DNA of 16,601 nucleotides from a virus. The notes beneath the pieces were generated by a model. That model saw nothing but the letters and a program-made list of their open reading frames with translations, did no database searches and had not been told where the DNA came from. Position numbers and translations under genes: made by a program. The stretch's first letter is position 1, and each line of letters starts with the position of its first letter. Of the stretch, positions 4,076 to 11,563 are shown piece by piece. The DNA lies in the UHGV virus genome UHGV-0088365; one strand, written 5' to 3'.

Positions 4076-4390
4076 GTTGAATTATAAATTTCTCCGATGT
4101 ACATTCACTACCGATTGGCACACCGGTCAACTTTTTGAGACAAACTGTATAGTTTTTCGTATTATTGCCGCCGCCATACCTATGGCGGTGCAATATAGGT
4201 GGCTGAAAAGCCCCCGTTGACTCACGGTGTTCCAGCCTTTATTGCGCCGCCGCCAGACCGTGGAACAGTCGATGGCGGCTCCGAAAGCAAGGAGTCACTA
4301 CACTATGAACAGCTACTGTCTTTTCCCATCACTCGTTATCCGCCACTCACGCGATAATCTGCATTCTTTACTCGCGCTGGGGGTGTCAAA

Positions 4391-4558
4391 ATGACCGTTC
4401 GCTACCTCAACTTTCAAATCCAGAACATCACTGGCGGTTGCTATGACTGGTTTGTCACTCTCGGAAAAGAAGTGATCACCGGGAAGCTGGATGAAGTGAA
4501 AGCTAAAGCAATGGCCTACGCCTGCAAGCAAGCCCGGAAGAAATCCGCCAAAGCATAA
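4391..4558 (+). CDS. Hypothetical small basic protein, 55 aa, possibly coupled to a 29-aa leader ORF (4305-4394)
   Basis: ATG at 4391 with GGGGGTG upstream; translation MTVRYLNFQIQNITGGCYDWFVTLGKEVITGKLDEVKAKAMAYACKQARKKSAKA. A 29-aa ORF at 4305-4394 (AAGGAG upstream) ends in an ATGA overlap with this start. Both are below the ORF-track size cutoff; the antisense track ORF 4313..4531 looks less plausible. Confidence 0.3.
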   Translation: MTVRYLNFQIQNITGGCYDWFVTLGKEVITGKLDEVKAKAMAYACKQARKKSAKA

Positions 4559-4762
4559 AATACTGACTTTTGCGCCCTGGCCTTATCGTGGGGTATATTT
4601 CTACGGCACCTTAGAAAAACGGGTGCCGGGATTGGAACCTCACGCGGTAGCTCCTTAACTTAGTCAAAGGAGGCTGCCAATATCGCTACTATCCCCACCC
4701 CAACTCATTCTGAATTTATCTGGCGTTTCTATTCCTGCCAAAAACACCTGTATATCTGCGTC

Positions 4763-5140
4763 ATGGCTGCAACCGAAGCAGAAGCTCGTTCATACCTTCC
4801 TGAAGAACCCTGCATTTTTGCCGCACGCTTCACTCTTGATGCGATGGAGATCCTAAATTACTGGAATCTTCTTGTTTGGTGCTTTTCCAGCTTTGTTCAG
4901 GAAAGACTTTATAACTTTTATTGGGTATTTGTAGTGATGCTGATACTGGCATTCCTCACAGCCGGAATTGGCCCGTGGATTGCCTCATTTATCTGGGCGT
5001 TCATGTATAATAAATATTTCACCGTAAATAAGATAAAACAAGGCTTCATTTTTGCTGGTTCTCACACAGAAAATGAGTTGGCTGCTAGCAAGCTAGGATT
5101 GTCATTAAATCAAAACAACTGCAAAACTATTACCGAGTAA
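4763..5140 (+). CDS. Putative small inner-membrane protein (two predicted TM helices); start uncertain (4763 or 4844)
   Basis: ORF-track ORF; hydrophobic segments LLVWCFSSFV and YWVFVVMLILAFLTAGIGPWIASFIWAFM. The body is AT-rich relative to flanks. No clear Shine-Dalgarno at either candidate ATG. Confidence 0.45.
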   Translation: MAATEAEARSYLPEEPCIFAARFTLDAMEILNYWNLLVWCFSSFVQERLYNFYWVFVVMLILAFLTAGIGPWIASFIWAFMYNKYFTVNKIKQGFIFAGSHTENELAASKLGLSLNQNNCKTITE

Positions 5141-5147
5141 AGCCAAA

Positions 5148-5171
5148 AAGCAGGCTTAATAGTAAGCCTGC
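5148..5171. terminator. Hairpin GCAGGCTT-aatagt-AAGCCTGC between convergent genes; intrinsic terminator for the minus-strand gene, possibly bidirectional
   Basis: Perfect 8-bp stem with 6-nt loop. On the minus strand it is followed by TTTTTGGC; on the plus strand it is preceded by AAAAA. Confidence 0.55.
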
Positions 5172-5179
5172 TATGTCAA

Positions 5180-6013
5180 TCACGAATCTCTCTGACAATT
5201 CAGAAACATAAACGCCCGCTTGTCTGTTAAATCCGTAACATAATACTCTCTCATGCCTGTAGGTTTTATTCTACGAGCATATACAAACTTATGAACTGGT
5301 TGTTTTTCCCCATAACTTACATCAGTCCTAAATTCATCAACCACGCTACCATCTTTTTCAGTTTCCTTTCTCACTAGCTGATTTTCTAATACAGGCTTTG
5401 ATTCGTCCATGCCACTAAAAGCATCCTGACCTGTGCTGTTGCCTCGGTTTCCGCGTGGCAAATCCCATGAAAAATAAGTGCCATAGTCAGTAATCACACG
5501 ATCCCATGTTCCGGAATCCCCCATATAGTTAGAACGCTCCCCCTTGTAAGTTACAGCCACCTTACAGGCATACGTTTCACCATTATTTTTTTTATCATGT
5601 CCAGCCATGCTTGCAGGAGTTGCAGGGGAATTATGAATAGATGCGCTTACATCATCCTGCGTTAATTCCTCAACTGGAGCAAATTCATATATGGGTGTGC
5701 CGAGGCTATTTAAATATAACTTATATCTAACCCTAAGCGCACTTCCATCAGAAAATTCATACGTTCCCAGACATTGGAGCTTATTTTTTTCTCTTATCTC
5801 ATTGATCTGATTATAAGCATCAATTACAGAGATTGCTTCCTGATCGTCCTTCAGCAGTTCATTATAATCATCGATTAACATCTGTCTGGTTTTAGGGGCA
5901 TTACAGTCAATTTTGCTAAAATCATAAGCAAAGGCAAATGTGGGAACAGAGAGAGCAACAACAGTAGCAAGTATTGTTGAGGAACATCTTTTTCCATTTT
6001 TTATAAAAAACAT
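5180..6013 (-). CDS. Secreted or periplasmic protein of unknown function with Sec signal peptide, about 277 aa
   Basis: ORF-track ORF 5180..6091 trimmed to the ATG at 6013 (GGAG 8 nt upstream), giving MFFIKNGKRCSSTILATVVALSVPTFAFA-YDF: basic n-region, hydrophobic core and AFA cleavage-type motif. Mature part is rich in Gly, Tyr and Trp. AT-rich. No family recognised. Confidence 0.7.
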   Translation of the reverse strand: MFFIKNGKRCSSTILATVVALSVPTFAFAYDFSKIDCNAPKTRQMLIDDYNELLKDDQEAISVIDAYNQINEIREKNKLQCLGTYEFSDGSALRVRYKLYLNSLGTPIYEFAPVEELTQDDVSASIHNSPATPASMAGHDKKNNGETYACKVAVTYKGERSNYMGDSGTWDRVITDYGTYFSWDLPRGNRGNSTGQDAFSGMDESKPVLENQLVRKETEKDGSVVDEFRTDVSYGEKQPVHKFVYARRIKPTGMREYYVTDLTDKRAFMFLNCQRDS

Positions 6014-6305
6014 TTCATTAACTCCATACTTTACCATCTTAGCCGCGAGCGCGGTCCCTAAAACCCTTAACTTCACTACACCGTCCTTCATGTAAACAAA
6101 ATGAGGTTTTATGTTATAAAAACAATCAACTTCATCAACATGATTTAGGCCAAGTTTCGGTCAAATAATAAAATCCTCAAAAAGTGGTTGACACTATTCT
6201 GGAAATCACAAACTGCACATAATCCATCGCGCTAACGGCTCCCGTTGAAGGTTCTTTTGACGATTAACTTTCAGCCGAAGCGCGGTAGGGAGTCATAACG
6301 CCAAA

Positions 6306-6333
6306 GCAGGCCGCCATGTGCGGCCTTTTTTTG
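6306..6333 (+). terminator. Intrinsic terminator or attenuator hairpin (GGCCGC-catgt-GCGGCC followed by TTTTTTT) 27 nt upstream of the next start codon
   Basis: Read directly: GC-rich 6-bp stem (7 with the flanking A-T pair), 5-nt loop, 7-T run at 6326-6332. It lies between a TTGACA hexamer at 6188 and the GGAGG/ATG of the 217-aa gene at 6360. Confidence 0.6.
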
Positions 6334-6359
6334 TATCCGTCATCCGTGGAGGAAGGACA

Positions 6360-7013
6360 ATGGAAAAGATCGCAATATTCAGCCTGACCACCAGCAAGCC
6401 TCAAATGCTCACTGCAATACTGAAAGACGGTGCTCTCATTATTAACGAAGTAAAACCCCTTCCCGCGTCAGCATTGGAGCAAAAGCAAAAAATTCCTCCA
6501 GCTATAGCAGCCCTGCGGAAAAGCAAATTTAAGGTACTGGTAGACGAAATTACGCCAACGATCTCCGCTGGCACCGGAGCAAGCCAGGTGACTCTCAAGA
6601 CCCGTCATGCCGATGGCAGAGCAGCAATCATCGTCGGGATGGAAAGATACAGAGAGTTAAAACTCCAGAAGCTATTATCCCTGCCGCAAAATAACAAAGG
6701 TGCTTTCGAAATCCCTGACTCCATCGTTGACACCGAATACAACGGTAACGGAGAAGAAGTCTACCGGGTGAACTGGCAGGATATCAGGCCGGAGCATATT
6801 TTGATGATCCTGTGTTGCTACGCGACCGTATACCACAATGTAGCCAGTGCGGATTACGTAGAGCAGATGACCGGTACAGTCGAGAAAGAGCAAAAAACAG
6901 GCATACTCGCTTCGTTCCTGTCCATTATTGGGCATGAAAAAGTTAAAGCAGGCACCTCCCAGCCAAAGACACTGACTGGGAAAGAAGTTGATGAAGATAC
7001 CGTGATACTTTGA
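6360..7013 (+). CDS. Hypothetical protein, 217 aa
   Basis: ORF-track ORF 6318..7013 trimmed to the ATG at 6360 (MEKIAIFSL...), which has GGAGGAAGG upstream. No family recognised. Confidence 0.7.
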   Translation: MEKIAIFSLTTSKPQMLTAILKDGALIINEVKPLPASALEQKQKIPPAIAALRKSKFKVLVDEITPTISAGTGASQVTLKTRHADGRAAIIVGMERYRELKLQKLLSLPQNNKGAFEIPDSIVDTEYNGNGEEVYRVNWQDIRPEHILMILCCYATVYHNVASADYVEQMTGTVEKEQKTGILASFLSIIGHEKVKAGTSQPKTLTGKEVDEDTVIL

Positions 7014-7671: not shown

Positions 7672-8857
7672 TTTCCTGAAAAACCAGGATGGGCGCTATA
7701 TCACTGACGGCCTGTCCTCTAAGGACTTCACGCGTTTATTCGACCTTATCAGGAAAGAACAAACCCGTAAGCGCCGACAAGCTCACCGGACGCTGACGCC
7801 AGGTAGACTGAGGAACAAATCCGCCGAAGATATTCTCAAGTTAGGGAAGAAAAAAGGCGGCACGTTCTTCACGCGAGACGACCTGAAAGGTTTCGAAAAG
7901 CTACGGAGTAAAACGCGCGAAAAATATGACAGCAAGACGGCTGGCATCACATACGCCCAGCTGGTGGCATCCAGCCAGGCAATCGATATTAAGCGTGCAA
8001 ATAACGCCGTGGATGACGGATCTGGTATCAAAAGAGCTACACCCGTATCTCTTCGCCACAATGTGATTAATATCCGCGTAGAAGCATCGGATATATCCGT
8101 CCACCAGCACCATATCGTCCGGATACGCTTTGAAGAATGGGATCAGATGGTTGATGACATCGCAGAAGACGATAAATCAGCTCTCAAAATCACTAAATCA
8201 CTGTGCGCCGGGCGAGTGTCTTTCGATTGTGACTGTGGTCGTCATCAATACTGGTATCGTTACATCGCCACTGCGGGTAACTTTGCCCTGGCACCGCCAA
8301 AAGAATACGCCTATCCAAAAGTTCGCAACCCGAAGCTGCAAGGCGTCGCCTGTAAACACGTGATCCACTCAATGACGCGGTTACAGTCCGCCAGTTGGCA
8401 AATGAGTATTGCTCGTGCGCTACAAAAGGCTGCAACGCAAATTGCATTTGGTGACGATCGCCGCCGTACAACCAAACACTTCTCAAAAGAAGACGAGAAG
8501 GAGTTTAATCGCAATCGTAGCAGTAAAACGAACGTTGAAGCCGCCAAACGCGAATGGAGGCTCTATCAGAAGCGCCAGGCAGCTTTAAGTACAAAACTGG
8601 CAAAGGACAACGGCAAGATCGACAAACTACGTGACCAATTGACCAAGGCCAGAAAGTTGTCAGATGCACAGAAAAAACGGGCGGCAGCAAAAGAAGCGGC
8701 CTTGCAACGTGAGAAACAGAAAAACAAGGAGCTTCAGCAACGCCTTGCCGATCAGTTCGCACTGAAGAAGCAGGCGTTCATTGATGCGCTTGTCATGGCT
8801 GGAACACCACCAGCACAAGCTGAAAAAATGTTCATGGAGTATGTAAAAAAAGCATAA
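7664..8857 (+). CDS. Basic protein with SWIM-type zinc finger (CxC...CxH) and long C-terminal K/R/Q/A-rich coiled coil, 397 aa
   Basis: ORF-track ORF. FDCDCGRHQYWY...(about 40 aa)...GVACKHVIHS fits the SWIM CxCxnCxH signature; residues about 280-397 are predicted coiled coil (e.g. KRAAAKEAALQREKQKNKELQQRLADQFALKK). Confidence 0.75.
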   Translation: MPDFLKNQDGRYITDGLSSKDFTRLFDLIRKEQTRKRRQAHRTLTPGRLRNKSAEDILKLGKKKGGTFFTRDDLKGFEKLRSKTREKYDSKTAGITYAQLVASSQAIDIKRANNAVDDGSGIKRATPVSLRHNVINIRVEASDISVHQHHIVRIRFEEWDQMVDDIAEDDKSALKITKSLCAGRVSFDCDCGRHQYWYRYIATAGNFALAPPKEYAYPKVRNPKLQGVACKHVIHSMTRLQSASWQMSIARALQKAATQIAFGDDRRRTTKHFSKEDEKEFNRNRSSKTNVEAAKREWRLYQKRQAALSTKLAKDNGKIDKLRDQLTKARKLSDAQKKRAAAKEAALQREKQKNKELQQRLADQFALKKQAFIDALVMAGTPPAQAEKMFMEYVKKA

Positions 8858-8866
8858 ACCACACAT

Positions 8867-8900
8867 AGCCTAGTAGTTTATGCTGGGCTTTCATTTTTTT
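8867..8900 (+). terminator. Intrinsic terminator after the SWIM-protein gene
   Basis: Stem AGCCTAG / CTGGGCT (7 bp with one G-U pair), 9-nt loop, followed by TTCATTTTTTT. The stop of the convergent minus-strand gene (8891) lies inside the T-run. Confidence 0.5.
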
Positions 8901-9619
8901 GAAAGATCAATTCCAGTATTATCAAACAAACTGGAAATATCAGACACCAATTTATTAAAATGCTTGTCATCATTATAGAATGATGTGCTTTTTATAGCGA
9001 CTATAAAATCACATAAATCTTGCGGAGATTCAATGCTAACCCCCTTATTTTTATATAGTTCAATAATACTGCCAACATCAGTATGCAATAGTTTTATCGC
9101 GCCACAAATTTCTCGCTGTTTCGTAACCAAGTCATTAAGTTTATTTTCATTTTCATCTAAGATTTGTTTTGAATATTTAGCGTCATTGGTTGCTTGATTT
9201 AACTTTGTTTTCTTTCTTTGCAATTCTATTCTTTTATCATAATCAGCAACTTCATCTAAATATCTTATTTCAGTGTATAATTTACTTGTTAGCTTAGATA
9301 TCTTCAGTGTGAGAACAGGAGCTAACACAGATGCAAATACTCCATAAATAAATGGGATTACAACGTGATAAACCCACGGGGATACAATCCAATTATCAAT
9401 GAACGGGACATTACCACCAACAGAAACAATAGATAATGTATATAGGATGTCGTCCTTTGACTTTAATATAATTAAAATATCCTTCCAGTTAAAAATTAGA
9501 AAAGAAATGACAACATATGCAAAAACCTTGTTAAATATTTTATCTTTTATTATTTCAGAAAATGATTTTAGTTCTGTTTCATTTATAGACGGATTATCTT
9601 TAACTTTTTCTGACATCAT
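8891..9619 (-). CDS. AT-rich membrane protein (two predicted TM helices) with coiled-coil-rich C-terminal domain, 242 aa; candidate abortive-infection or exclusion-type effector
   Basis: ORF-track ORF; ATGATG start at 9619 with AGGA 7 nt upstream. Predicted TM segments FAYVVISFLIFNW and WVYHVVIPFIYGVFASVLAPVLTL; K/E/N-rich helical C-terminus. Markedly AT-rich. No family recognised. Confidence 0.75.
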   Translation of the reverse strand: MMSEKVKDNPSINETELKSFSEIIKDKIFNKVFAYVVISFLIFNWKDILIILKSKDDILYTLSIVSVGGNVPFIDNWIVSPWVYHVVIPFIYGVFASVLAPVLTLKISKLTSKLYTEIRYLDEVADYDKRIELQRKKTKLNQATNDAKYSKQILDENENKLNDLVTKQREICGAIKLLHTDVGSIIELYKNKGVSIESPQDLCDFIVAIKSTSFYNDDKHFNKLVSDISSLFDNTGIDLSKK

Positions 9620-9640
9620 AGCTTATCCTGATTACTTTTA

Positions 9641-9841
9641 TTATGGATAGTTAAAAGATTCAACAGGTGATGGTGGTTGAATTGGGTAATGTTTCTTCTC
9701 GTACTCCTCAATGAGAAGACTCATAACCTCAAAGAAATCACCTTCCGGAGTATTCATTTCCGGTTCGTTATCGAACATCGGTTCGACCGCACGCAGTGCG
9801 GCCTCATAATCTTGTTCTGTACGGATAGGTTTAATGTTCAT
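9641..9841 (-). CDS. Small protein resembling only the N-terminal (non-HTH) domain of YgjM/HigA-type antitoxins, 66 aa
   Basis: ORF-track ORF; MNIKPIRTEQDYEAALRAVEPMFDNEPEMNTPEGDFFEVMSLLIEEYEKKHYPI follows the pattern of the N-terminal domain of E. coli K-12 HigA (...NEEQYTQALELVDHLL.NDPENPLLDLV...ITAWEE...) as I recall it, but there is no HTH domain. No Shine-Dalgarno sequence is evident. Confidence 0.5.
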   Translation of the reverse strand: MNIKPIRTEQDYEAALRAVEPMFDNEPEMNTPEGDFFEVMSLLIEEYEKKHYPIQPPSPVESFNYP

Positions 9842-9854
9842 TAATTACAAAGGA

Positions 9855-9885
9855 AAGCCCACTTGCTAAGTGGGCTTTTTGTATG
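9855..9885. terminator. Hairpin AAAGCCCACTT-gct-AAGTGGGCTTT followed by TTGTATGTGTTTT; terminator, strongest in the plus orientation
   Basis: Perfect 11-bp stem with 3-nt loop between the higA stop (9898) and the 66-aa ORF start (9841). The T-run is on the plus strand; the minus orientation has only TTTCCTTT. Confidence 0.5.
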
Positions 9886-9897
9886 TGTTTTACTATA

Positions 9898-10236
9898 TCA
9901 GGCTGCTTTTTTATTCAGGTTCCGCTGAGAAATAAATTTTTCAGCAGTATTGATACGACTTAACTCTTCCTGAACGCGCATATCATTTTCGACTTCCCAC
10001 AGATCTACTGCGGTCTGAAGATTAATCCAAAAATCTACAGAAGTATCGAATGCTTTTGCCAGGCGATATGCCATATCCATCGTTAGCTTACGATTGTTAT
10101 TAACAAGAGCACTTACGGTGTTACGATGAACATGAAGTATTTCTGCTAACTCGTTGATCTTCAGCTCTAACGGCTCCAGGTATTCGTACAGCAGGATATC
10201 ACCTACGGTCGTCGGTTTTCTGGTTGCCTGTTTCAT
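9898..10236 (-). CDS. higA: HigA-family antitoxin (XRE-type HTH), 112 aa
   Basis: ORF-track ORF; PTTVGDILLYEYLEPLELKINELAEILHVHRNTVSALVNNNRKLTMDMAYRLAKAFDTSVDFWINLQTAVDLW matches the HigA/VapI HTH antitoxin pattern; it lies downstream of a HigB-like toxin gene (toxin-first order typical of higBA). Confidence 0.8.
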   Translation of the reverse strand: MKQATRKPTTVGDILLYEYLEPLELKINELAEILHVHRNTVSALVNNNRKLTMDMAYRLAKAFDTSVDFWINLQTAVDLWEVENDMRVQEELSRINTAEKFISQRNLNKKAA

Positions 10237-10306
10237 TTTTTGCCCTTACTAGCGTGCGTATTAAGTGGACTCTGGTCAGAACCCGGTCCGTAACCGGGTA
10301 TCTGTT

Positions 10307-10609
10307 TTAGTATTTGTGAGGGTCGAGATACAAGTCCTCGGCCTTTCCGTTAACCCACTTAAAAATTAACCTATATTGCTTATTCACCCTTACTGATGAA
10401 TAGCCATTTAGCTTCCCTGACAGTTCCTCATACCGATTACCTGGTGGTGATCTTAAATCCTTACAGGTAGTTGCGGCATTGATAATGTCCAACTTCCGTG
10501 ACAATGTCATATGAATATCAGGAGGTATCTTTCTATGTGGTGTTGAAAATTCAAAAAAATCATCAAGCCACGCATCCCTGAAATCCTTTATGTTAATTTT
10601 TTTGGTCAT
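10307..10609 (-). CDS. higB: HigB-like toxin (plasmid-maintenance killer protein, RelE/ParE superfamily), 100 aa
   Basis: ORF-track ORF; C-terminal half GNRYEELSGKLNGYSSVRVNKQYRLIFKWVNGKAEDLYLDPHKY follows the HigB pattern (...G.R.G.YS.RVN..YRL.F...NG.A..L...DYH) as I recall it; upstream GGAGGA. Confidence 0.8.
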   Translation of the reverse strand: MTKKINIKDFRDAWLDDFFEFSTPHRKIPPDIHMTLSRKLDIINAATTCKDLRSPPGNRYEELSGKLNGYSSVRVNKQYRLIFKWVNGKAEDLYLDPHKY

Positions 10610-10654
10610 TAGTCATTTGATCCTCCGTGATGATTACCGAATGCCATAACTATA

Positions 10655-10682
10655 GCGCACCGTTGCACTGTGCGCAAGTGCA
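10655..10682. promoter_or_regulatory. Nested palindromes (GCGCAC...GTGCGC and TGCACT-N7-AGTGCA) in the divergent promoter region between higB and the rightward operon; putative operator
   Basis: Read directly in GCGCACCGTTGCACTGTGCGCAAGTGCA; toxin-antitoxin promoters are typically autoregulated through palindromic operators. Confidence 0.4.
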
Positions 10683-10771
10683 TTTTATGAATTCCCCCTC
10701 CTTCATCCAAAATCACAATCTCCAGAAAATCTTCCTTTCGATACCTGACAGATCGACCTTTGAGGATGCTT

Positions 10772-11563
10772 ATGGGCCGTTTTGACGAATGGTTTGCTGA
10801 CGATGCAAACCTGGCAAGTAAGGAGTCAGAACATGACAGCACGCAGAGAGAAACGCCAGCGCCGATTGAAGCGAATGCAGGAGGCGCGCCGGAACATGGC
10901 AATACCGGTTCGGATTCATTCAGCATTCTGGAAGAGCAACCCGCCGCCCAAGCTGATAGCCATGATAATTTTGCTGATAGCAACGGTGGCCTTACTCCGG
11001 ATGCTGGCGAATCAGATATAGCCATACTTCCATCTTCCCTGGCTGGCAGAGAACCGACTCCACAGTTAAAAGCACGCTATAACGGGCATAAAGCCTTTAA
11101 CGACCAAATCCGCGCAGACTGGATGCTGATTATTGAATCCAGCCCAGACGCGTTTCAGGCTCTCTTATATCGACCAGATGTTGGCACATATGGGGTAGTC
11201 AGCGACGAAACAGGAGAAGAGTCATTCACTGAACTGGATAACAACCAACGCGAACTGACTTACCAGGAACCTGAAATCGTTTATGTGCTGGATAACCCTG
11301 ACGGGCGTGACTCTTTCCATGCGATTGACGCAGACGGTGAGCAGGATGGCTTAACCGATGATGTTCTGATTCTGCGTATTGCAGCAAATAACGTCCCCGT
11401 CGGCTCAATTCTTGAATGGAATGAAGAGATGGTAAACGGCGTAGCGCGCCGCTGGTGGTACGTGCACCGTATTTTTAGCTACGGCACACAGCATGTTGGT
11501 TCGCTTTACTACTGCATACCTGCCAGGAATTTTGATACGACTCAAAACGGAGTGATCGAATGA
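10772..11563 (+). CDS. Hypothetical protein with acidic, low-complexity N-terminal half, 263 aa
   Basis: ORF-track ORF 10760..11563 trimmed to the ATG at 10772 (GAGGA 5 nt upstream); ATGA overlap with the next gene. No family recognised. Confidence 0.7.
   Translation: MGRFDEWFADDANLASKESEHDSTQRETPAPIEANAGGAPEHGNTGSDSFSILEEQPAAQADSHDNFADSNGGLTPDAGESDIAILPSSLAGREPTPQLKARYNGHKAFNDQIRADWMLIIESSPDAFQALLYRPDVGTYGVVSDETGEESFTELDNNQRELTYQEPEIVYVLDNPDGRDSFHAIDADGEQDGLTDDVLILRIAANNVPVGSILEWNEEMVNGVARRWWYVHRIFSYGTQHVGSLYYCIPARNFDTTQNGVIE

Follow-up and report, generated by a model that had tools for sequence, protein, structure and literature searches.

The stretch of DNA analysed here, referred to as the window, comprises 16,601 nucleotides (nt) of the virus genome UHGV-0088365, and the locus of interest within it (4763-6013) contains two open reading frames (ORFs), one of 125 amino acids (aa) on the plus strand (4763-5140) and one of 277 aa on the minus strand (5180-6013). 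Their coordinates and convergent arrangement agree with a preliminary description made from the sequence alone, which took them for an AT-rich pair, presumably acquired from another source, that codes for a small membrane protein and a secreted protein. The gene of the secreted protein and its simB label are already known, from the record of phage D6 and from one paper (PMC6799933). What is new is that, judging from alignments, the similarity to SimB of phage P1 covers only a third of the protein; that the remainder is predicted to form an uncatalogued, confidently modelled beta-barrel, modular across phage-plasmids and chromosomes; and that the neighbouring ORF in the window is a deletion artefact.

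The AT-richness of 4763-6013 is confirmed by a windowed GC analysis, with a GC content of 0.397 against a window mean of 0.458 (the only other low-GC trough in the window lies at ~8250-10800), and by the GC content at third codon positions (GC3), which is 0.313 in the 277-aa gene and 0.43-0.53 in neighbouring phage genes. The best match to window 4500-6300 is plasmid pTetA of strain 19-5 (98%; megablast, 234 E. coli records), and 318 of the 319 matching places are on plasmids, of ~87-95 kb among the matches listed; among phages the match is D6, with 97.6% identity. The annotated neighbourhoods in D6 and pTetA are those of a P1-related plasmid prophage, with a Ref nuclease, icd, a Rha-type antirepressor, mat, homologues of P1 genes 26, 25, 7 and 24, and a HigB/HigA module, and the window is collinear with both, at 90-99% identity, indels excepted. 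The window is a D6-like (P1-related) E. coli phage-plasmid, and the temperate-phage setting assumed at the outset is borne out by these matches.

Table 1. Features of the locus; positions refer to the window.
Feature	Position	Strand	Basis
Gene of the 277-aa predicted secreted two-domain protein (D6 orf79 homologue, "simB-like"), stop codon included	5180..6013	-	ORF, homology
Signal peptide codons, aa 1-29 (MFFIKNGKRCSSTILATVVALSVPTFAFA), predicted cleavage AFA/YD	5927..6013	-	n/h/c anatomy, hydropathy
SimB-like domain, aa 30-116, invariant Cys37 and Cys81	5666..5926	-	BLASTP against P1 SimB, alignment, AlphaFold2
Linker, low-complexity, length-variable, aa 117-145	5579..5665	-	pLDDT <50 for residues 116-145; indels among homologues
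C-terminal beta-barrel domain (predicted), aa 146-277, G-N-R-G-(N/D)-S-T-G loop, Cys150/Cys273 pair	5183..5578	-	
Shine-Dalgarno site GGAG, 8 nt upstream of ATG 6013	6022..6025	-	Read from sequence
Promoter-like site of the secreted-protein gene (GTGTCA, 18 nt, TATTAT), putative function	6165..6194	-	Consensus scan, 9/12 matches
Putative intrinsic-terminator hairpin, 10-bp stem, 4-nt loop, U-tract on the minus strand only	5149..5172	-	Terminator scan, RNAfold
Chimeric ORF, 125 aa	4763..5140	+	BLASTN and alignment against D6, pTetA
Deletion junction icd'/'orf80	4858..4869	+	D6 alignment; halves of a 151-nt probe overlap there

Gene signals, signal peptide and domains of the 277-aa protein

The mechanical ORF reaches an upstream ATG at 6091, but ATG 6013, the start already chosen in the preliminary description, is the better one, because it has a Shine-Dalgarno site and ATG 6091 has none; the RefSeq annotation of pTetA uses the same 277-aa start. 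At the other end of the gene, a hairpin sits between the stop codons of the two convergent genes, with RNAfold free energies of -15.9 kcal/mol on the plus strand and -17.8 kcal/mol on the minus strand. A U-tract (TTTTGGCTTT, also given as UUUUGGCUUU) follows it on the minus strand, whereas its plus-strand tail (AUGUCAAUCA) is not a U-tract. The hairpin is therefore a convincing terminator for the secreted-protein gene only and looks unidirectional, so that the terminator thought to be shared by both genes does lie between them but would serve one of them.

The signal peptide was called heuristically, from the anatomy of the n-, h- and c-regions and from hydropathy. The parts expected for signal peptidase I are present (K5, K8 and R9 in the n-region, a hydrophobic core and AFA ahead of the cleavage site) and every homologue, P1 SimB included, carries an equivalent but sequence-divergent signal peptide, in support of the Sec signal peptide noticed before. 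The predicted mature N-terminus has no lipobox Cys at +1, and no transmembrane (TM) segment is found beyond the signal peptide. The protein is very probably exported, and a periplasmic location would fit both the anatomy of the signal peptide and the two conserved Cys pairs (Table 1). The mature part, which had been called rich in Gly, Tyr and Trp, is rich in Tyr (6.5%) but not in Gly (6.5%) or Trp (0.8%).

Over its full length the protein matches phrog_13054 (E 3e-191) and D6 orf79 (97.5% identity), annotated as "similar to P1 simB". BLASTP aligns aa 8-116 with the entire P1 SimB (111 aa; 46% identity, E 1e-27), and in an alignment of 18 members of the SimB family C37, R43, C81 and S103 are invariant. 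The AlphaFold2 model of this domain consists of one helix packed on a 4-stranded sheet, with a predicted local distance difference test score (pLDDT) of 72-86; Foldseek of the N-domain against the PDB gave nothing at E <=1e-3, only a local cystatin/NTF2-like resemblance.

The conservation of the protein is concentrated in the C-terminal domain, which takes 63 of the 66 invariant columns among 11 full-length sequences (lowest overall identity to the window protein, 37%). Two motifs characterize it, DYGxYFSWDLP(R/H)GNRGNSTGQD and VYARRIKPxGxREYYVTD, and in distant members the core shrinks to G-x-R-G-(D/N)-S-T-G plus C150 and C273. Although the AlphaFold2 model of the full-length protein is poor overall (pLDDT 57), the C-domain modelled alone reaches a pLDDT of 91 and a predicted TM-score of 0.86, and is a small closed all-beta barrel of ten strands, in which the invariant GNRG(N/D)STG motif would sit in a long loop and the Cys pair would close the first and last strands. 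A fold search with it in BFVD retrieved uncharacterised phage proteins only (TM-score ~0.55); its fold matches are weak (<=14% identity) and rank level with unrelated barrels, so that the fold class of the model is clear but names no function.

Pfam, NCBIfam and PADLOC scans of both window proteins gave nothing meaningful (a Lactamase_B_2 match with E 0.13 was dismissed as noise), a hidden Markov model of the C-domain found no match among PDB sequences, and Pfam, with its MliC/PliC families included, matched none of 11 C-domain homologues. The family is small, with 11 clusters in a collection of 5.8 billion proteins and 31 representatives among 1.84 billion, and its members differ in what precedes the C-domain: it may stand alone behind a signal peptide (P0013, P0027 and P0029), behind an unrelated helical N-domain (P0009-P0012 and P0022) or behind a membrane-spanning N-terminus (P0016). 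SimB-like proteins of ~101-148 aa are also found standing alone. These architectures indicate that the SimB-like and C-terminal modules are separable.

Cassette, distribution and neighbouring regions

The C-domain is found in 59 PLSDB plasmids, 49 from E. coli and 10 from Salmonella, of which 57 are non-mobilizable; most measure 74-96 kb, the exception being one 216-kb record. Fifty-eight of the records label the gene "hypothetical protein" and one is unannotated, and in 21 plasmids the C-domain is 100% identical to that of the window. The SimB-type allele is present in 56 plasmids and an allele with the helical N-domain in the other three. In one of these, the D6-like plasmid L007, the helical-N allele sits in the corresponding slot, with mat on one side and the antirepressor on the other. 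Nucleotide homology between L007 and the window is 98% as far as window 6188, within the promoter-like -35 element, is lost over the 5' untranslated region, signal peptide, N-domain and linker, returns at 76% over the C-domain, and is gone again over the terminator and orf80. The segment that runs from promoter to terminator thus acts as a cassette that can be exchanged, and the GC3 of 0.313 together with the homology break at 6188 mark the gene as such. The foreign-type insert suspected in the preliminary description is thus a low-GC, variable, moron-like cassette, whose slot is filled by a different allele in L007.

On the far side of this break, the intergenic region upstream of mat is 98% conserved between cassette alleles. 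Within it, just 34 nt ahead of the mat start (ATG 6360, preceded by GGAGGAAGG), the plus strand has a strong GC-rich hairpin with a T7 run behind it (6308-6326); this may be a terminator or an attenuator, or may mark where a small transcript that begins from the TTGACA at 6188-6193 ends.

Outside the plasmids, a homologue of 270 aa that joins the helical N-domain to the C-domain is found in Buttiauxella massiliensis (locus L010, 2886-10307; gene at 5593-6405), flanked by an 809-aa ORF, which we take from reading its sequence by eye to be an N6-adenine DNA methylase, and by a 582-aa uncharacterised protein. These surroundings resemble an integrative or defence island, because an ORF ~2.5 kb away (8889-10307) is presumably a tyrosine integrase. 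A stand-alone C-domain gene (P0027, 170 aa; L004, 7057-8513) is preceded by genes for a 143-aa multi-TM protein and a 133-aa secreted protein rich in His, Asn and Asp; the three-gene group, with a LysR regulator on one side and a chaperone-usher fimbrial operon on the other, may constitute a small cluster of envelope genes. Other P1-like elements also have SimB-only genes, as does one chromosome of 4.67 Mb, and one SimB-only homologue is flanked by housekeeping genes. The idea that SimB-like genes always travel with a SimC-like partner is refuted by these SimB-only homologues, which have no SimC neighbour. In a study of Salmonella D6-like prophages a simB homologue was present and simA and simC were absent, and in one D6-like variant the simB region was replaced by other genes (PMC6799933).

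The other ORF of the locus is neither the small membrane protein gene nor the partner gene that it had been taken for: it is a private deletion chimera of icd and orf80, a recombination scar, with a composite frame and a junction that neither PLSDB plasmids nor complete E. coli genomes carry contiguously. The frame starts with residues 28 to ~62 of the cell-division inhibitor Icd (4763-4867), passes through 19 out-of-frame orf80 codons (4868-4924), and ends in frame with the last 71 codons of orf80 (residues 46-116; 4925-5140), its hydrophobic segment being kept. In agreement with this composition, phrog_1426 matches aa 1-40 and phrog_4915 aa 41-124, and aa 1-23 match positions 23-46 of the 48 of the Icd-like model NF033153 (25.7 bits against a cut-off of 25). 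Neither a complete Icd frame with its start codon nor the full 116-aa orf80 frame (phrog_4915), whose N-terminal 45 residues are not retained, is present in ORF 4763-5140.

In the alignment with D6, window 4630-4869 (icd region) matches D6 locus 4225-4464 and window 4869 onward corresponds to D6 locus 6001 onward, with orf80 (D6 locus 5923-6273) starting in the window from its 79th nucleotide. About 1.5 kb of D6 is gone: icd has lost its end and orf80 its first 26 codons, and between them the gene of a 313-aa Rha/KilA-type antirepressor and a pmgF-like gene are missing. The start ATG of icd annotated in D6 and pTetA is ATC in the window (4682-4684), and the 125-aa ORF therefore begins at the internal Met28 of Icd; no Shine-Dalgarno site precedes this ATG 4763, and the chimera is probably translated poorly or not at all. 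The orf80 frame is restored by a G run that is one base shorter (GGGG to GGG, 4923-4925), which could reflect selection, chance or a homopolymer sequencing error.

A second loss affects the same region. A 181-nt stretch of pTetA containing most of an isrK-like RNA and the whole C4 antisense RNA (RF01695, 76.7 bits; compared over pTetA locus stretch 6107-6318) is missing from the window; it lies between two direct copies of GATTGGAACC, of which one is left at window 4630-4639, and Rfam detected no family in the whole window or in 4300-6400. Because the C4 RNA, the icd start codon and the antirepressor are all lost, the whole immI circuit (c4-icd-ant) of the window element is gutted and inactivated; pTetA carries an independent, smaller deletion in ant. 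For annotation it matters that the 125-aa ORF is a deletion scar and marks the element as lacking its antirepressor circuit.

Elsewhere in the window, the most AT-rich gene (8891-9619, minus strand; 242 aa, GC 0.291, GC3 0.23) is a homologue of D6 orf73 that adjoins the HigB/HigA module; it is matched in neither Pfam nor PADLOC and looks like a further cargo gene of the moron type. The genes at 9641-9841, 9898-10236 and 10307-10609 (all minus strand) include those for a toxin of the HigB type (PF05015, E 4e-35) and for an HTH_3 antitoxin. D6 orf72, a second helix-turn-helix gene by this module, is a remnant in the window and is annotated as a pseudogene in pTetA; window 9550-9660 stands in place of ~310 nt of D6.

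Possible roles of the secreted protein

The reading that we tentatively favour, by analogy with P1, is that the 277-aa protein would be a periplasmic Sim-type factor for superinfection exclusion or envelope guarding, with the barrel loop as effector and the swappable N-domain as adaptor. It is favoured because of the homology to SimB, combined with the exclusion, dispensability and hypervariability associated with P1 sim: superinfection exclusion has been reported as an effect of sim (Kliem & Dreiseikelmann 1989, cited in PMC8546580), the locus is non-essential for P1 growth (PMC10695390), and the sim region is one of eight hypervariable regions in P1-like phage-plasmids (PMC9603915).

In this model, the gene at 5180-6013 (-) is the half that has stayed intact in a self-contained, low-GC cargo cassette, which has a promoter-like site, a Shine-Dalgarno site and a terminator to itself and is placed, in D6-like plasmid prophages, in a variable slot between the tail/maturation genes and the immI region. 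The factor would be made by the resident prophage in the lysogen, exported through the Sec pathway and cleaved after AFA29, and would fold in the periplasm into two disulfide-stabilised modules on a flexible linker, namely an alpha/beta domain homologous to the SimB encoded in the sim superimmunity operon of P1, and the ten-stranded beta-barrel, whose long invariant GNRG(N/D)STG loop would be the likely working surface. Its target would be an incoming P1/D6-type phage, after adsorption and before the DNA reaches the cytoplasm, the barrel acting as effector and the exchangeable N-domain as adaptor or specificity module. Among the lysogenic-conversion functions proposed in the preliminary description, exclusion at the envelope is the one that receives backing from homology, through the SimB-like N-domain.

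Several observations weigh against this assignment. In the annotation of P1 it is SimC that carries superimmunity, SimB being a mere "putative accessory", and the 277-aa protein has no similarity to SimC, while D6-like elements lack simA and simC (PMC6799933). SimB-only homologues have no SimC neighbour, one of them being on the 4.67-Mb chromosome, and the stand-alone C-domain gene P0027 is placed among ordinary chromosomal genes. The gene of the window is convergent with immI, whereas P1 sim diverges from the c4/immI promoter, and promoter-like sites in the region are not above chance frequency in the consensus scan. Fold matches of the C-domain are generic barrels only, and PADLOC matched neither the window proteins nor P0009, P0012 and P0027.

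Some of these observations can also be read in favour of a host-directed lysogenic-conversion factor, in which the barrel would bind a small hydrophobic ligand or inhibit a muramidase or lytic transglycosylase (MliC/PliC/PhiA-like), so as to protect or remodel the envelope of the lysogen. Stand-alone C-domain homologues in chromosomal, non-phage contexts and the SimB-only homologue between housekeeping genes are consistent with such a role, but the fold matches are weak and no better than those to unrelated barrels, Pfam gives no match to MliC/PliC or to any other family, the protein is confined among plasmids to D6-like phage-plasmids, and SimB is its sole sequence-level relative bearing a functional label, so that we consider this explanation unlikely.

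Somewhat less likely still is that the secreted protein and the orf80 membrane protein constitute one two-gene system, which would hence be broken in the window. In PLSDB, possession of the SimB-type allele and of orf80 coincides exactly, in the same 56 plasmids, where the two genes are always convergent and ~45 nt apart, and the three plasmids with the alternative allele lack orf80. These 56 plasmids are, however, closely related, and the linkage may reflect shared descent only; C-domain proteins occur without orf80, and the secreted-protein gene is intact in the window (97-100% identity) despite the disrupted orf80. Relatives of orf80 are also found without the secreted protein, at ~56% identity on Variovorax megaplasmids and more weakly (<60%) on Azospirillum, Bacillus and Fusobacterium plasmids, and this small membrane protein forms a widespread family independent of the SimB-like gene. 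Taken together, these last three findings argue against a dependence of the secreted protein on orf80.

A role as a D6 lytic-cycle accessory in lysis timing, in release or in blocking progeny re-adsorption or injection into lysing cells, expressed with the adjacent maturation and tail genes, is improbable: the gene does adjoin mat and the tail/baseplate genes, and no P1 C1-operator consensus that would tie it to the lysogenic programme was found with <=3 mismatches allowed, but it lies on the strand opposite to mat and the tail genes with its own terminator, its GC3 is unlike that of structural genes, its slot accepts another allele or, in the Salmonella D6-like variant, other genes, and the P1 sim genes are dispensable.

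The exclusion or envelope-guard role remains the reading we prefer. A bolder version of it, which we regard as improbable, is that the C-domain barrel would be a new periplasmic effector that blocks genome delivery by P1/D6-type myophages, for instance by inhibiting the Sit transglycosylase or by capping the tape-measure/tail-tip complex, with the exchangeable N-domains, SimB-like or helical, determining the specificity for target or partner; if true, a modular family of periplasmic gatekeepers of DNA entry would be common to plasmid prophages and chromosomal islands. Exclusion of P1-type phages at the envelope has been a standing question since sim was described in the 1980s, and a SimB module fused to a second conserved, putatively periplasmic domain that is absent from Pfam offers a single-gene handle on Sim-type proteins. 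D6-like phage-plasmids occur commonly in E. coli and Salmonella, in strains both of food animals and of patients, and an exclusion function, if true, would influence the entry of phage-plasmids and of P1-type transducing particles into those strains.

Comparison with known systems

T4 Sp and Imm and the lipoprotein-type exclusion factors Cor and Llp are prophage- or phage-encoded envelope proteins that halt an incoming phage at or just after adsorption. No sequence relationship or specific fold relationship between these and the window protein was found, and the latter differs from the Cor/Llp lipoproteins in having no Cys at +1 and from inner-membrane proteins in having no TM segment after the signal peptide. 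The nitrobindin/calycin-like, Cap15 and PliC/PhiA barrels share <=14% identity with the C-domain and no common motif was identified; the C-domain family is defined instead by its GNRG(N/D)STG loop and Cys pair, for which sequence and profile searches gave no link to these barrels.

In P1, simA, simB and simC form an operon that diverges from the c4/immI promoter and whose three products have N-terminal signal peptides; the annotation assigns superimmunity to SimC and gives SimA and SimB the status of putative accessories. SimC (264 aa) is, like the window protein, an exported prophage protein with a signal peptide, of similar size and from an equivalent neighbourhood, and would be its likeliest functional analogue, with exclusion after adsorption (Kliem & Dreiseikelmann 1989, cited as above). 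The two have no detectable similarity, however (BLASTP E 0.89; hhalign probability 0.05%), and an identity as a SimB-SimC fusion was rejected, the remainder of the window protein being unlike SimC or anything else in P1. SimC (simC at P1 locus 4326-5120) has a sub-threshold match to the Pfam family tRNA_anti-like, of the oligonucleotide/oligosaccharide-binding (OB) fold (E 0.0011, residues 67-159), which hints that the classical Sim protein contains an OB-type barrel, unlike the ten-stranded barrel modelled here.

P1 SimB (P1_gp042, 111 aa, "putative superimmunity accessory function") has a Sec-type signal peptide like that of the 277-aa protein, and its mature domain of ~85 aa aligns end to end with the latter at 46% identity, with the motifs DFSK(I/V)DCN, C-x-G-T-Y-E-F-S-D-G and NSLG and two invariant Cys in common. 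Both proteins are encoded on a P1-group plasmid prophage, close to the immI region. SimB is a single domain, whereas the window protein adds the linker and a 130-aa barrel; and simB is inside the simABC operon, whereas the gene of the window is monocistronic, convergent with immI and without simA or simC. We know of no function ever demonstrated for P1 SimB, nor of any role assigned to it, and no functional study of SimB or of D6 orf79 was found in the literature.

A tblastn search with the 277-aa protein matched only D6 orf79 and the P1 simB stretch, and the annotated neighbours of orf79 in D6 include neither simA nor simC. D6 orf79 and its alleles (phrog_13054) are the same gene, and their secreted product differs in no substantive way from that of the window; the difference lies beside it, the neighbouring orf80 and immI genes being deleted or fused in the window copy.

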